Of a stretch of 37,439 nucleotides of DNA, positions 12,001 through 21,000 are shown piece by piece; position 1 is the stretch's first letter, and each line of letters opens with the position of its first letter. The position numbers are program-made. Origin of the DNA: Pedosphaera sp. (GTDB lineage: Bacteria > Verrucomicrobiota > Verrucomicrobiia > Limisphaerales > SIBH01); the NCBI GenBank assembly GCA_031414955.1, contig JANOQV010000294.1, forward strand, positions 1 through 37,439. The letters are read 5' to 3'.

Positions 12001-15000
12001 CGCGAAGGCGCGGATGCTGTTCGCCTACTCGGAAGGATTGCTGACGCAGGCGCGCATCGTGAACGACGTGGAAGTGTTGCGCGAGATGGCTGAAGGCGTC
12101 CTCGGCATCCTGGGTGCGAAGACCGTCGCGCCCAAAGCAGCCTGATCATCAGACATTTTTTTGGAGATCAATTTGACTAAACAGTTCACTATCAACGGGG
12201 ATTAAGAATGAAATTTACGCCTGCACCCTTCGGTCAGTCCGTTCTGAAATCCAGTTCGCCGGGGCCAAGTTGGAATTGCCACGCCCACTTCCGCGACGAA
12301 ATCGCTCGCGCCAAACGAACCACGATGCGGGATTATAGCGCCGAGGTCGGCGAACACTTGCGTCTGCTTCGCCTGGCCTTGAACGAAGCCGAGGCTCTGG
12401 CCTGGCAGACCGATTATCCGCACCTCGTCTTTCCAGTTCTGGCTGCGGAGAAGGCCCGCGCCACGGCCCGCTGGCACCGGCGCCAACGCGCGCTTCAGAG
12501 CGTAGCACCTCAGTTCTCATGCGCGGAATAAACCAAGGATCTATGAAGAAAACCCAGACCAAGAAGTTATTTGTGCTCGCGGCGGCCAGCCTGTTGGTGG
12601 GCTGCCATCGTTCCGCCCCGCCGGGACCGGGCGGAATGGAGATGCCCCCGCCGCTGGTGGCGTGCTCCACCGTGCAGCCACAGGAAATCATCGAGTGGGA
12701 TGAGTTCACGGGGCGCACGGCGGCGATTGAAAACGTGGAGGTGCGGCCCCGCGTGTCGGGCCACATCGAGGCGGTGAAGTTTCAATCAGGCCAACTGGTG
12801 AAGAAGGGCGAAGTGCTTTTTCAGATAGATTCTCGCTCGCAGCAGGCAGAACTCGACCGCCGCTCGGCGGATTGCGAGCAGGCCCGCGTGAAACTGGCCA
12901 ACGCCGAGCGCGAGGCCAGGCGCATCGCTTCCCTACTGGCGAACAAGGCCATCTCGGCGGAGGAAGGTGATCAGCGCCAGATGCGTTTCGACGAGGCGAA
13001 GGCGGCGCTGCTCTCCGCCGAGGCCGCGCGCAACACAGCGAAGTTGGATCTGGAGTACACGACCATTCGCTCCCCCATCAACGGCCGGATCAGTCGGGCG
13101 CTGGTCACAGAAGGCAATTACGTGAGCGGGGTCGCCGGCATGTCCACGGCGCTGACGACGATTGTCTCGGTGGATCCCGTTCACGTCTATGCGGACCTGG
13201 ATGAGAACGCGCTGCTCAAGTTCAACGCCCTGAATCGCGCGCACAAGATCAGCAGCAACGGCGACGGTCAGGTGCCGGTGGAAATGGAACTGGCCGACGA
13301 AACCGGCTTCCCACATCGCGGCACCATTGAGTCATTCGACAACAAACTCGACGCGGCGTCCGGCAGCATCCTGTTGCGGGCGGTGTTTCCGAATCCTGAG
13401 GGCAGGCTGGTACCGGGACTGTTTGCACGCATCCGCATCCCTGGCAGCGCAAAACACAGCGCGCTGCTTGTGGACGAGGGCGCGATTGGCACGGACCAGG
13501 CGCGCAAGTTCGTGCTCACGATCACGTCGAGCAACCGGACCCATTTCGCCGAGTATCGTCCGGTGAAACTGGGCCCGGCCATCAACGGCAAGCGCGTGGT
13601 GCGCGAGGGCCTCCAGTCTGGAGATCAAGTGGTGAAAGACATCGTGATGGCCCGGGTGCGCCCGGGCATGGCGGTGCAACTTCAGACGGCGGGCGCGACC
13701 AATGGCGTCCCGGCGCAGACGGCCCAGCGTTGAAGGGGGAGCGAGAACCGAAATGAAATTTTCCCACTTTTTCATCCGCCGGCCGATCTTTGCGGGCGTG
13801 CTTTCAGCCATCGTGTTCCTGCTCGGGCTGCTGGCGATGTATCGCCTGCCCATCAGCGAATACCCCGAAGTCGTGCCACCGACCATCGTGGTCATGGCGA
13901 CCTATCCGGGCGCAAACCCGAAGACCATTTCCGAGACGGTGGCCGCGCCCCTGGAGCAGGCCATCAACGGGGTGGAGAACTCCCAATACCTGTTCTCGCA
14001 GGCCACGAGTGACGGGGTGATGACGCTGACCGTGACCTTCAAGCTCGGCACGGACGTGGACCAGGCGCAGGTGCTGGTGCAGAACCGCGTCTCGCAGGCG
14101 TTGCCGAAACTGCCCGAGGAAGTGCGCCGCCTCGGTGTCACCACGCGCAAGCAGTCGCCAGACCTCACGATGGTCGTGCATCTCTTCTCACCGAACGATC
14201 GTTACGACGAAATCTATCTGCGCAACTACGCGACGCTCCAGGTGAAGGATGTGCTGGCACGCATTCCTGGCGCGGGCAATGTCGAGATCTTCGGTTCCGG
14301 CGATTACGCGATGCGCGTGTGGCTCGACCCGAACAAGGTCGCAGCCAAGATGCTGACGGCGAGCGACGTGGTGAACGCGATCCGCGAACAGAACGTGCAG
14401 GTCGCGGCGGGCGGCGTGGGCCAGCAGCCCGTGAGCAAGACGGTGCCGTTGCAATTGCAGATCAACACCAAGGGCCGGCTGATCGACGTGGCAGAGTTCG
14501 AGCAGGTCGTGGTCAAGTCAGGGCCGAACGGTGAAAAAACTTTGCTCAAGGACGTGGCCCGCGTGGAACTTGGTGCGGCCGGCTACGCGCTGCGCTCGCT
14601 GCTGAACAACAAGACCGCCGTGGCGCTGCCCATCTTCCAGTCGCCGGGTGCGAACGCGCTGCAACTCTCCGATGACGTGCGCAAGACGATGGATGAGTTG
14701 AAGCAAAATTTTCCGCAGGGCGTGGACTACTCGGTGGTTTACGACCCGACGGTCTTCGTGCGCAATTCGATCAAGGCCGTGGTCACGACGCTGTTCGAGG
14801 CCATCCTGCTCGTCGTCATCGTCGTCATCCTGTTCCTGCAAACGTGGCGCGCGTCGATCATCCCGCTCGCCGCCGTGCCGGTGTCGCTCGTCGGCACCTT
14901 CGCCGTCATGCTCTGGCTCGGCTTCAGCATCAATGCGCTCACGCTCTTCGGACTCGTGCTGGCCATCGGCATCGTGGTCGATGACGCCATCGTCGTAGTG

Positions 15001-18000: not shown

Positions 18001-21000
18001 CCCATCTTCGCCGGGGGTCGGAACAAGGCGAATCTGGCGCGCTCCCGGGCCGCGTACGAGGAGACCGTGGCGAAGTATCGGCAGCGCGTGCTGGTAGCCT
18101 TTGCGGACGTGGAAAATAGCCTGTCCAGCCTTCATTATCTAGGCCAACAAGCCGCTGCACAGAAGCGGGCCGTGGCCAGCGCCCGGCGGGCGGCGGAACT
18201 GGCCAGGCAACGATTTACCGGAGGTGTGGTTAGTTACCTGGAAGTGGTGGATGCCAGCCGTGGCGCGCTTCTGGCTGAACGAAACCAGGCGCAGATTGTC
18301 GGACAGAGGTTGATTGCCAGTGTTCAGTTGATCCGGGCGCTGGGAGGTGGCTGGGATGAATCCTCACTCACCTCGCGCCAGTAATTTGGAAAGGAAGATG
18401 ATGAGAACAAAGAAGCGACAAACCAAGCCGTTGAAGACGAAGAAATTCGCCACGCCGAAGCTGCGCAGCCGAGCGCCCAAGCTCGGCCAGAAGATTCGAG
18501 GGACGCGCCAGAAACCTGCCGTGGCCCTGCCCAGCGTCTGGCCTGCCACGGCCACCACGACCTCCAACACCGCCACCGCGCCCGGATTTACGGAGAGCCT
18601 GAGCCGCGATCCCATTCGTATTTACATGCGCGAGATCGGCCAAGTGCCGTTGCTCACTCGTCAGGAGGAGAACGCGCTGGCCCGCCGCATCAAACGTGGA
18701 GACGCGGCGGCGCGCGATCACATGATTCGCGCCAACCTCCGCCTCGTGGTCAAGATCGCCCGCGACTACGAGAATTACGGCCTGCCTCTCCTGGATTTGA
18801 TCAGCGAAGGCAACATCGGATTGATGAAGGCGGTGGAGCGCTTCGATCCGCGCAAGGGCGCGAAGCTCTCCACTTATGCCGCCTGGTGGATCAAGCAGTC
18901 CGTGAAGCGAGCCCTGGCCGACCAGAGCAAGACCATCCGGCTGCCGGTGCATGTCGTCGATAAACTGTTCCACATCCGCAGGACCGAGACGATGCTGGTC
19001 GAGTTGCTCGGTCGCGAACCGTCGGACGCCGAGATCGCCGAGGAGATGGGCATGAAGACGGCCCAGGTCCGGGACTATCGCAAGGCCTCCATTTCCCCGA
19101 CTTCACTCGACGCGCAACTCGGCGATGACGACACAAACAAATTCGCCGACATCGTGGCCGACCAGAACGCAGTGGCACCGTTCCAGCAGGCCGTGGAGGA
19201 CAGCGACAATGAAATCATGCGTGAAGTCATCGCCACGCTTTCGCCACGCGAGCAGACGATTCTGCAACTGCGCTTCGGCCTGAGTGGCGGCGATGAGAAG
19301 ACGCTCGAAGAGGTCGGGCAGCAATTCGGCGTCACTCGTGAACGCATTCGCCAGATCCAGGACGAAGCGTTGCGCAAACTGCGCAAGCGCATCGAGCGCC
19401 GCGACAAGCGGAAGGACGAGATCGCGCAGGCCGCGTAAGCACGCGGGGAAAACCCAGTCGATTCGTGAAGCGCCGGTTGGCCCCGGCGCTTCAAACTGTA
19501 CCGGACAGGCGACCAACAAAAAAGGCACCGCGCGGCGGTGCCTTAATGAAACGAGTTGGATCCGGCTGGAGCGATTACTTCGCACCCTGTTCGATCCAGG
19601 CGCGAACCAATCCGATTTCCTCCTTGGTCAGCGGGGCGATCTTCGCCTTGTTGCCCTTGGGCGGCATATACATCTCCTCGTCCTCGACGATCTGGGCCAC
19701 CATGGCGATGAGCGGGCTTTTGGCCAGGTCACCCGCCGTCACCGACGCGCCTTCGCCACCGCCCTTGAGCACGTTGGCCTTGGTGTCGGAGCGAAACTTG
19801 CCCTTGGGCTTCTCCACATCCGCGCCGTGGCACTTGGCGCAGGACTTCTCGAACATCGGCTTGATGTCGGTGTCGAATGTCACGCCGGCCTTGGCTGCCG
19901 CTGGCGGCAGCTTGGCCACGTCAATTTTCATATCCGCCGCACCCAGGACGAGCGCGCCGGCCACCACGGAAAATCCAATCCAGATTGTTTTCTTGTTCAT
20001 AAATATGTCGTTCGGACGTTGCTTAACGAATCGCCATTCAGAGCGCAAGTTCACTTCGCTTTCTTGACCTTCTCCCACCGTTTTGTCTTCGCCGACTTGA
20101 GCACCGCATCGGTGACATAATCGGTGGCAAGTCCATCCTTGAAGGTCGGGCCGGCCAGTTTTCCCTCGGATAATCCTCGGATGAAGTCCGCGACCTGATG
20201 CACGAACGTCTCGGCGTAACCGATCTGCAAGCCGGGCACCCACCAGTTCTTCATGTAGGGATGATCACCGTCCGTGATGTGGACCGACTTCCAGCCGCGC
20301 ACCTTGCTCTCGTCCTTGTAGTCAAACACCTGGAGGCGGTGCAAGTCGTGCAAGTCCCAGAACAGCGAGCCGTTCTCGCCGTTGATTTCCAAGGTGTAGA
20401 GCGCCTTGTGCCCGCGCGCATAACGCGTGGACTCGAAGGTCGCCAGCGAGCCGTTGCTGAAGCGCGCCAGAAACAGGCTCGCGTCGTCGATGCTCACCTT
20501 CTCCACCTTGCCGGTCAGGGTGTGCTTGCGTTCCTTGATGAAGGTCTCGGTCGTGGCCGTGACCGTGTCGATGGTACCGTTCAACCACATGGCCGTGTCG
20601 ATGCAATGCGCGAGCAGATCGCCCGTGACGCCGCTGCCGGCGACCTTGGCATCCAGCCGCCACAGCCCCGCCCCGCCCTGCGGCAGATCGGCGCTGATGG
20701 TCCAGTCCTGTAAAAACTTGGCGCGATAGTGGAACACGCGCCCGAGCCGGCCTTCTTCGATCAGTTGTTTCGCGAGCATGACGGCCGGCACGCGACGGTA
20801 ATTGTACCAAACCATGTTCGGCACGCGCGCTTTGTGCACGGCCGCGACCATTTTCTCCGCCTCCGGGCCAGTCATGGCCAGCGGCTTCTCGCACAGGATG
20901 GCCTTGCCCGCCTTGGCGGCGGCGATGGCGATCTCGGCATGGACGTTATTCGGCGCGGCAATGTCGATGACGTCGATGTCATCGCGCGCGATGAGTTGCC

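Follow-up and report, generated by a model that had tools for sequence, protein, structure and literature searches.

Bradyrhizobium japonicum FbcH reportedly joins cytochrome b to a cytochrome c1 precursor that is cut at an internal signal-peptidase-I-type site, and in viral polyproteins ER signal peptidase cuts internal signals, releasing several envelope proteins from one chain. In reviews, lipoprotein signals are N-terminal and the pump and channel of tripartite systems are separate proteins; a 2026 review states that all preprolipoproteins begin with an N-terminal signal of 10–25 residues (PMC13721041). Our literature search found no description of a fusion between an RND pump and an outer-membrane factor (OMF) or of an internal lipobox, and neither is mentioned in passages of PMC8277102, PMC11213822, PMC10872679 and PMC3637150. 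The search likewise found no paper in which Lgt and LspA accept a signal carried on a 1,040-residue membrane protein.

A Pedosphaera sp. contig contains a gene that combines pump and channel in one frame. The window, meaning the whole stretch of DNA analysed (37,439 nucleotides), holds the following features:

11531–12145 (open frame from GTG 11522), + strand: TetR-family regulator that heads the unit (Pfam TetR_N, TetR_C_13)
12208–12531, + strand: conserved 107-aa small gene in the tetR/adaptor interval
12543–13733, + strand: periplasmic adaptor (MexE/OqxA-like), N-terminal lipoprotein with its own gene (HlyD_D23)
13753–18384, + strand: fused RND pump and outer-membrane factor gene, 1,543 aa (translation, Pfam, NCBIfam)
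13753–16875, + strand: RND permease, residues 1–1041, BpeF/AdeG/OqxB/MexF type (ACR_tran 3–1037)
16864–16866, + strand: Met1038, end of TM12, invariant in 79/79 fused and 10/10 split loci
16876–16938, + strand: basic flexible cytoplasmic linker, a candidate n-region, residues 1042–1062 (3–6 K/R in 120/120 relatives)
16939–16980, + strand: internal h-region, residues 1063–1076 (hydropathy; helix modelled at 1065–1077)
16981–16992, + strand: lipobox F1077-T1078-G1079-C1080, predicted to be acylated by Lgt and cut by LspA before Cys1080
16990–18381, + strand: predicted mature outer-membrane factor, residues 1080–1543, NodT/OprN type (TIGR01845 over cut-off)

The fused gene translates with zero internal stops. 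An ATG at 13702 opens its frame, and the start was set at 13753 because relatives begin MKF.HFF. Pfam assigns ACR_tran to residues 3–1037 (model positions 1–1020 of 1021) and OEP to two later stretches, and the NCBIfam model outer_NodT (TIGR01845) covers residues 1072–1533 with a score over its cut-off. The initial annotation had described a single frame without a stop between the two halves, these domains on one gene and an adaptor gene directly upstream, all of which we recovered, the last in the Pfam-annotated neighbourhood. Ten other OEP genes were found in this genome, as it had counted, and eight other RND frames against its ten; all of them are unfused. Among clade loci with enough flank, the tetR gene was present in 43 of 44, the adaptor in 44 of 44 and the small gene in 40 of 44. 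The adaptor has MexE as its top NCBIfam model, exceeds the RND_mfp cut-off and carries an N-terminal lipobox, LVGC. The small gene occurs once in the genome and gave zero matches in a Pfam search, and its nearest Atlas clusters are unnamed and, where their source is known, mostly from Verrucomicrobiota. A promoter and terminator scan of 11400–18700 returned counts at or below those of shuffles.

The fusion of pump and channel in one frame is real, as the initial annotation had maintained. An artefact of assembly or read-through, or a stop codon lost recently within a decaying operon, has a negligible probability as its explanation and is already refuted by the recurrence of the fused form. Such an artefact had been found elsewhere in the same genome by the initial annotation, and a 50%-identity library is rich in short read-through-like junctions with an internal Met and scrambled sequence. 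Contigs of two sequencing runs span the junction with 0 differences, but both runs may be the source sample, and contigs of runs X3 and X4 did not cover it. The main protection is accordingly not read coverage but the 79 distinct fused loci in the same clade (22 families, counted over part of them); against the artefact stand also 107 full-length proteins and the completeness of both the pump and the channel domain.

The pump half has the features of an HAE1 RND permease of the MexF/OqxB type, for which drug export is predicted. It carries D410 and D411 (TM4), K948 (TM10) and R979/R981 and T986 (TM11), which we take to be the equivalents of the proton-relay residues of AcrB. It passes the model NF000282 (score 1447, cut-off 1250) and misses the OqxB model (1426, cut-off 2200); it is a relative, not OqxB itself. 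Its closest solved chains are 7wlv, 8yr0 and 7cz9, and the 60 solved pump chains listed among 69 matches are each at most 1,069 aa long. The channel half has two OEP repeats and the OMF fold of NodT/OprM-type proteins, with OprN (5iuy) as best Foldseek match (TMt 0.84); it lacks the own gene with N-terminal signal peptide of that type, there being no preceding stop and no start signature. Cys1080 aligns to Cys1 of mature OprM; alignments with OprN, OprJ and CusC likewise start at residue 1 of both proteins. Single-sequence structure prediction was uninformative (mean pLDDT 46).

Between the halves lie WRKKP at residue 1042, LFTGC at 1076–1080 and VGPDF at 1082. Within the pump, a hydropathy scan gave 13 peaks (12 helices and a weak one at 670–688); a further peak lay at 1065–1083. 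The n-region, h-region and lipobox Cys of a Sec/SPII signal are all present, with Phe at −3 in place of the canonical L/V/I; the signal starts after residue 1041 rather than within an N-terminal 10–25 residues. The lipobox LFTGC with Cys near 1080 is where the initial annotation had placed it. Its hydrophobic stretch of ~24 residues proved shorter, a strongly hydrophobic core of ~11–15 residues (1063–1077) within an uncharged stretch of 22 (1058–1079), and its 13th helix was modelled, but at low confidence and behind a disordered linker (1042–1068, pLDDT < 50). The best 10-residue hydropathy is 2.8–3.0 at junctions, 2.2–2.6 in free channel signal peptides and 0.42 in split pump tails. Genes for Lgt, LspA, Lnt and LolA are present in the genome, as are four for signal peptidase I.

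Conservation of the junction among relatives indicates selection on a signal-peptide-like segment, although which enzyme acts on it, and how completely, lies beyond sequence. Among the best 120 relatives, the earlier tally of 110 longer than 1,400 aa with both Pfam families became 107 long proteins, with PF00873 and PF02321 listed in 120/120; 3–6 K/R precede the hydrophobic stretch in every one, as claimed. The reported division into 30 lipobox, 89 Ala-x-Ala and 1 other junction held in pattern, the recount being 29 lipobox (22 of them canonical) and 91 Ala-x-Ala-type (81 strict and 10 loose). In 82 distinct Cys-free junctions, Ala occupies −1 in 88% and −3 in 78% while −2 is variable; the −3/−1 pattern fits 89%, against 40% in shuffles (maximum 56%), a significance overstated by the shared ancestry of the sequences. 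Elsewhere in the linkers, Cys occurs once in 3,792 other residues. The residue at +1 in the window's clade is G, S, N or A, and in Ala-x-Ala relatives the predicted cut site is followed by a short apolar N-terminus of the GLLTV or GWFKV type. The channel tree contains nine swaps between lipobox and Ala-x-Ala, at least five of them forced by strong branches. When a pump is fused instead to a P-type ATPase, both being inner-membrane proteins, the h-region is absent (4 rows).

We give a probability of roughly 80% to the reading that the fused gene encodes a polyprotein, with signal peptidase II making the cut in this protein and signal peptidase I doing so in most relatives. The locus has one frame, two complete proteins and an internal signal with a cleavage motif, as an FbcH-like polyprotein would. 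The initial annotation had proposed a polyprotein with an internal (lipo)signal peptide, and four patterns lend this support by inference: the internal segment appears to evolve like a cleaved signal peptide, because −2 is free within the −3/−1 pattern, the two cleavage types swap, CzcA-type fusions follow the Q-rule and the segment is replaced by a new signal peptide after splits. The 12-helix pump would be inserted co-translationally with its C-terminus in the cytoplasm, and the basic linker and h-region would then act as an internal signal opening Sec for the 464-residue channel. Cys1080 would be acylated by Lgt, LspA would cut before it, and Lnt and Lol (with BAM) would take the channel on to the outer membrane, leaving the spent signal as a stub at the C-terminus of the pump. 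Cleavage in most close relatives would instead be by signal peptidase I, at Ala-x-Ala. Pump and channel would finally come together 3:3 with six adaptors from a gene of their own, as MexEF-OprN does. The non-canonical Phe at −3 in the window and the canonical form of only 22/29 lipoboxes count against a signal peptidase II cut; the invariance of Met1038, the local folding around it, the junction starts in 21/83 loci and the split state of 10/89 loci likewise count against a polyprotein.

The initial annotation had allowed that the channel half might start internally, and this was tested. In-frame overlapping genes, with the channel made separately from Met1038 or a linker GTG/TTG behind an ordinary, longish signal peptide and the full-length chain incidental, are improbable. 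Met1038 is invariant and followed by K/R resembling an n-region, the codons right after it are AT-rich in the window, and the pump's own start mostly lacks a ribosome-site match (present in 14% of 21), so that a start may do without one. Yet no fused site (0/78) has a match of −5 kcal/mol or better at Met1038, whereas 37% among the 49 real channel starts do, a figure biased upward as the best-scoring Met was picked. The same Met is kept in all ten split loci, where it is unable to start the channel, with identical local folding (−7.5 kcal/mol in fused and in split loci; channel starts −3.2, pump starts −1.5); Met1038 shows no start signature. The sequence around it is less structured than that of other internal Met sites (−7.5 versus −9.7 kcal/mol), and in 21 of 83 fused loci an in-frame ATG/GTG/TTG somewhere in the junction has a ribosome-site match. 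Against an internal start, the junction holds no ATG, GTG or TTG at all in 7/14 distinct loci of the distant group C and 3/13 of group B, 85 of 117 long CzcA rows lack a Met before the h-region, and without a stop codon the pump would still have to be made with the channel attached.

Cleavage without Lgt and LspA, near the seam and by signal peptidase I or some other protease of the envelope, would leave the channel unlipidated and Cys1080 a relic. The 91/120 relatives with an Ala-x-Ala-type end and no lipobox agree with this, as does the Phe at −3; we nonetheless hold it to be very improbable, since a Cys at the OprM-Cys1 position is kept in the window's subclade (10 rows) and in groups B and C, the hydrophobic stretch is followed by [GAS]C in 21/21 distant full-length fusions, and FTGC also occurs in the free N-terminal channel signal peptide of locus L055 in the same genus. 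There is a very slight chance that the chain is never cut. The h-region would then serve as a permanent signal anchor (a 13th helix) holding the channel on the pump, and the channel would either bridge the periplasm or work from the inner membrane. In favour of this, the h-region at the junction is a little more hydrophobic than the free signal peptides of channels, and the about 49 residues from Cys1080 to the first channel helix (1129), by arithmetic ~17–18 nm fully stretched, would extend barely as far as the equatorial belt; against it, this stretch is shorter in group C and CzcA fusions. A permanent anchor would need neither small −3/−1 residues nor a lipobox Cys nor a +1 Gln. The conserved GPD[YF] motif, 3 residues past Cys1080, is moreover modelled inside the channel fold (pLDDT 70–76), and in OprM this site lies near the lipid anchor of the N-terminus in the outer membrane (PMC8277102), in an assembled pump whose two membranes are ~23 nm apart (PMC4754349).

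The fused arrangement appears to be readily undone. Of 89 clade loci, 10 are split, a proportion that speaks against fusion being strongly advantageous. In loci of the same genus broken by insertions, the channel gained a ribosome site, GGAG(G), and an ATG, with new n- and h-regions, while its TGC lipobox stayed the same. That the fusion is repeatedly gained and lost fits near-neutrality as well as a selected 1:1 ratio, and fixed 1:1 synthesis as the selected benefit is putative and unproven. The fusion may have arisen by loss of the pump stop codon and channel start, more than once and easily reversed; a single origin of all fused pumps was ruled out in a 38-row tree, where they do not form one clade. 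An apparent second passenger behind an internal signal (L054/L055) was dismissed, its 250-residue tail being an opposite-strand reading of an inserted cassette and not a protein domain.

Fusions are not peculiar to Verrucomicrobia, from which all named sources in the initial annotation came, but also occur in Acidobacteriota, Kiritimatiellota and cultured Bacteroidota, among the cultured carriers being Sphingobacterium sp. SYP-B4668, Spirosoma, Pontibacter and Larkinella. Automatic JGI names of relatives already show both halves. Long (~1,450 aa) CusA/CzcA entries carry both Pfam families in 96 of the best 120, come from Bacteroidota wherever the source is named, and are called simply CzcA by database sources. 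Their distinct junctions read small-x-[AGS]|Q in 95 of 97 (shuffle mean 30.5, maximum 48), and this +1 Gln matches the Bacteroidetes signal-peptidase-I Q-rule (PMC5837995). The supplementary proteomic files of that paper contain one ordinary outer-membrane efflux protein and zero CzcA, CusA, RND or TolC rows. In a plasmid search, the best 15 of 2,647 records were ordinary pump operons, a listing that gives no count of fusions.

It is probable that these cases reflect a general bacterial polyprotein route, in which an inner-membrane transporter carries a C-terminal outer-membrane protein behind an internal signal cut by both signal peptidases, including Lgt/LspA, with repeated origins across RND families and phyla; many Bacteroidota may normally make their CzcA-type pumps this way, and the route may carry other exported passengers, such as a multicopper oxidase. 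Predictors of lipoproteins and outer-membrane proteins that consider the N-terminus only would then miss thousands of proteins. Long fused proteins named permease only leave their channels invisible in genome counts and proteomic searches. Should the cut be real, the substrate of Lgt and LspA is a signal attached to a membrane protein of 12 helices, and a protein of the inner membrane gives rise to an outer-membrane channel, which is directly testable; the fused loci also provide a natural setting in which to test whether coupled synthesis at 1:1 promotes assembly of the pump.

Compared with ordinary Sec/SPII and Sec/SPI signals (PMC9360617, PMC13721041), the internal segment shares the basic n-region, the h-region and a lipobox or small −3/−1 residues, but it sits ~1,040 residues in, without its own initiator Met, whereas those are N-terminal. 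MexEF-OprN, BpeEF-OprC, AdeFGH and OqxAB share the regulator–adaptor–pump–channel gene order; the pump is nearest BpeF (7wlv), AdeG (8yr0) and OqxB (7cz9), the channel is closest to OprN (5iuy) with its N-terminal Cys at the same position, and pump and channel are two genes there and one here. The long CusA/CzcA entries of Bacteroidota likewise join ACR_tran and OEP in one chain with K/R, an h-region and a cleavage-type seam, but they combine a heavy-metal pump with a TolC/CzcC-like channel and have a signal-peptidase-I site with +1 Gln and no lipobox. Viral polyproteins share the internal signals and differ in their eukaryotic host machinery and viral genes. FbcH is similar in coupling a polytopic inner-membrane protein, through an internal signal peptide, to an exported member of its complex; both of its products stay in the inner membrane and it has no lipobox, whereas here the second product would be sent to the outer membrane and is predicted, for this copy, to be a lipoprotein.

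The fused gene (13753–18384, + strand) translates as one frame of 1,543 residues without a stop, in which Pfam finds a complete ACR_tran domain (residues 3–1037) and two OEP stretches; the initial annotation's placing of pump and channel in one frame is thereby borne out. The pump half scores above the NCBIfam cut-off for RND_permease_1 and the channel half (residues 1072–1533) above that for NodT. Domain tests place the two halves in the HAE1 pump and NodT channel families, from whose members the gene departs in having neither a separate gene for each half nor an N-terminal signal. 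BpeF, AdeG and OqxB are the closest solved pumps, and OprN has the closest fold to the channel half. Elsewhere in this genome, the 8 RND frames and 10 OEP genes that we found are all unfused. The seam and neighbouring frames are as follows.

12208–12531 (+), small gene of 107 amino acids without a Pfam match, between tetR and the adaptor gene
Residues 1042–1080 of the fused product, seam behind TM12: WRKKP at 1042, polar spacer, h-region at 1063–1076, then FTG/C1080 (slash, predicted cut)
18347–19438 (+), sigma-70 factor frame overlapping the 3' end of the fused gene

Residue 1 of mature OprM is the counterpart of Cys1080 in the alignment, and for OprN, OprJ and CusC, too, the match starts at residue 1 of both query and target. 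An alignment-based structure model of residues 851–1543 (51 rows, mean pLDDT 83) predicts TM12 followed by a disordered linker (1042–1068 below pLDDT 50), a low-confidence helix at 1065–1077 and a well-folded channel, including the segment right behind Cys1080.

The fused form recurs widely. Using residues 1045–1543 as query against proteins of 848–2,701 amino acids only, a search blind to split forms, we obtained 614 matches among 8,000 scored candidates. Both families were present in all of the best 120 relatives, 107 of which exceed 1,400 amino acids, slightly fewer than the 110 counted initially. Genome searches for the same pump clade gave 89 distinct DNA loci (79 fused, 10 split), after exclusion of 8 with a misplaced anchor or broken frame. 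These two results uphold the claim that the fusion is not an artefact; contigs of two sequencing runs, which may be the source sample, also cross the junction with 0 differences.

Junction anchoring succeeded for all 120 best relatives, each with 3–6 Lys/Arg. Their junctions end in a lipobox (29, of which 22 canonical) or in an Ala-x-Ala-type site (81 strict, 10 loose); the two types and the Lys/Arg range reported initially stand, and the counts of 30 Cys, 89 Ala-x-Ala and 1 other are revised. Over the best 10 residues, hydropathy reaches 2.8–3.0 in 113 distinct junctions, compared with 2.2–2.6 in the signal peptides of 51 free channels and 0.42 in 22 split-pump tails. Cys-free junctions (n = 82) carry Ala at −1 in 88% and at −3 in 78%, with a variable, polar −2, and 89% of them fit the −3/−1 pattern compared with 40% in shuffles, a slightly flattering contrast given that the offsets were picked post hoc. 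Junctions derived from DNA have the same profile as the protein set. A tree of the channel half (n = 125) contains 9 exchanges between Cys and Ala-x-Ala, at least 5 of them forced by strong branches, and both types also occur in free channels of the clade. Judged from these sequences, selection for cleavage would predict such alternation of two cleavage grammars at one position, whereas a passive linker or a permanent anchor would not. The predicted mature N-terminus of Ala-x-Ala relatives is a short apolar stub (GLLTV, GPLTV, GWFKV, NWSTV) where the lipoprotein forms bear a predicted acyl-Cys; the stub may replace the lipid anchor. OprM is held in the outer membrane by a lipid anchor at its N-terminus (PMC8277102).

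Natural splits show what becomes of the channel when the frame is broken. In two genomes of the same genus, an insert of ~700 bases interrupts the h-region midway (loci L054/L137 and L055/L132), and in both the pump frame continues ~250 residues into the insert; that of L055/L132 carries on the opposite strand what we take, from a motif, to be a PIN-type toxin–antitoxin-like pair. After these insertions a relic linker remains on the pump, and the channel has acquired GGAG(G), an ATG and a new n/h region, with the TGC lipobox unchanged. At a third split locus (L062), the pump is near-identical to those of fused loci L063 and L065, an MFS-like gene separates the halves and the channel has a signal peptide of its own. 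Since channels gain a new signal peptide after splits, the channel requires one; a fused chain offers it none but the internal segment. Across split relatives L009, L010, L013 and L062, the intervening gene is MFS-like or short-chain-dehydrogenase-like by the look of its sequence.

Two other accounts of the seam were weighed. The channel might be restarted internally at Met1038 (16864–16866), as its retention in 79 of 79 fused loci originally hinted, but it is also kept in 10 of 10 split loci with equal local folding (−7.5 kcal/mol in both), more structured than real channel starts (−3.2) or pump starts (−1.5). A ribosome-site match of −5 or better occurs at 0 of 78 fused Met1038 sites; among 49 real channel starts the share is 37%, a figure inflated because the best Met was chosen, and among 21 pump starts it is 14%. 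Admittedly, the surroundings of 799 further internal Met sites are more structured (−9.7) than those of Met1038, and in 21 of 83 fused loci the junction contains an in-frame start codon that has a ribosome-site match; against this, the junction lacks any ATG, GTG or TTG in 7 of 14 and 3 of 13 loci of two distant fused groups. These loci are non-independent kin, so we weighed contrasts rather than p-values. In the split clade next to this one (L002, L010, L013, L014, L016, L139), Glu occupies position 1038. If the chain instead remained uncut, a conserved motif would need to come away from the channel and 49 residues would need to extend to their limit here, with fewer residues to spend in other fused groups. 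PMC4754349 puts the membranes ~23 nm apart in an assembled tripartite pump of ratio 3:6:3.

CzcA-type pumps have a comparable seam and provide a strong, independent line of evidence. With this genome's unfused CzcA-like pump as query and proteins of 1,314–3,750 amino acids only, 6,729 of 7,999 candidates matched, and 96 of the best 120 also contain OEP; named rows among these 120 are mostly cultured Bacteroidota and Ignavibacteria. The motif small-x-[AGS]/Q follows the h-region in 108 of 117 rows with a C-terminal extension among the best 120, and in 95 of 97 (shuffle mean 30.5) once duplicates were collapsed and 13 rows dropped for other domain orders, other passengers, or, in one Methylocystis protein and three close relatives, no Gln. 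Gln occupies +1 in an average of 71% of Bacteroidetes signal-peptidase-I substrates (the Q-rule), according to PMC5837995. In the Pedosphaera clade +1 is G/S/N/A; the seam thus obeys the cleavage grammar proper to each lineage. A word search turned up no earlier note of the Q-rule at pump–channel seams. In long CzcA proteins of Bacteroidota and Ignavibacteria (P0349–P0455), the OEP channel forms the C-terminal part and is preceded by an internal signal that has Gln at +1. Two proteins of a Deltaproteobacteria MAG (P0343, P0344) consist of a CzcA-type pump and a multicopper oxidase with a hydrophobic stretch and a lipobox-like GGC between them, on the face of it the same device with a different exported passenger. 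All four fusions of a CzcA-type pump to a P-type ATPase (P0341, P0342, P0346, P0348), where no part requires export, lack an h-region at the seam. Reversed orders, channel ahead of pump (P0340) or adaptor ahead of pump (P0347), are single sequences that could be read-through artefacts.

A phylum-wide search extended the fused form to other classes and to other pump subfamilies, with a lipobox in nearly every additional frame. We ran a profile of 22 junctions on 1.84 billion representatives; the best 150 matches include 21 full-length fusions, excluding many short read-through-like fragments, and in all 21 [GAS]C comes after a hydrophobic stretch. We looked up 20 clusters, whose named members come from, among others, Kiritimatiellota, Acidobacteriota, Muribaculaceae, Prevotella and the isolate Sphingobacterium sp. 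SYP-B4668. A pump tree with 149 rows requires 17 switches between the fused and split states, at least 11 of them forced. On a 38-row subset, where the fused/split label is scarcely more clustered than chance, a single clade of fused pumps was rejected (p-AU 3e-7). Because sampling favoured fused forms, we state the origins as several and give no exact number.

The fused gene is preceded by tetR, the conserved small gene and an adaptor of MexE-like type that bears an N-terminal lipobox of its own. The 107-aa gene is matched in 40 of 44 clade loci, its neighbours in the Atlas are clusters without a name, most of those with a known origin being Verrucomicrobiota, and it is possibly an undescribed component or regulator of the pump. 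Only 6 of 44 clade loci have the sigma-70 frame close by, which hence lies outside the efflux unit. TetR control and kinship with BpeF/OqxB suggest hydrophobic compounds as candidate substrates.

We conclude that the fusion is real and conserved, has evolved repeatedly and is most likely a polyprotein processed by signal peptidase (probability about 0.8). Seam anatomy, cleavage-type swaps, splits and the Q-rule all favour the polyprotein reading first given in the initial annotation, with cleavage itself predicted from sequence. The 12 pump helices would be inserted co-translationally, the internal signal would export the channel half, acylation and cleavage would follow at Cys1080, and the channel would be delivered to the outer membrane and assemble with the pump and separately made adaptors. 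Lgt, LspA, Lnt, LolA and signal peptidase I are encoded in the genome. The 3:3 pump-to-channel ratio may explain why these two fuse and the adaptor stays separate; a near-neutral, tolerated loss of the stop codon would account equally well for the repeated reversion.

In the literature searched, which excludes subscription journals, TCDB notes and most supplements, we found no account of an RND–OMF fusion or internal lipobox; accessible parts of PMC8277102, PMC11213822, PMC10872679 and PMC3637150 describe no such fusion, and those of PMC9360617 no lipoprotein signal within a polyprotein. All preprolipoproteins begin with an N-terminal signal of 10–25 residues, according to a 2026 review (PMC13721041). 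The two-domain architecture is already apparent in JGI names. As a precedent, the FbcH precursor of Bradyrhizobium comes closest. The novelty is assembled from known parts, its most surprising element being the predicted, undescribed internal lipoprotein signal. Compared with MexEF-OprN, the fused system works alike and differs in two features, the separate gene and the N-terminal signal.
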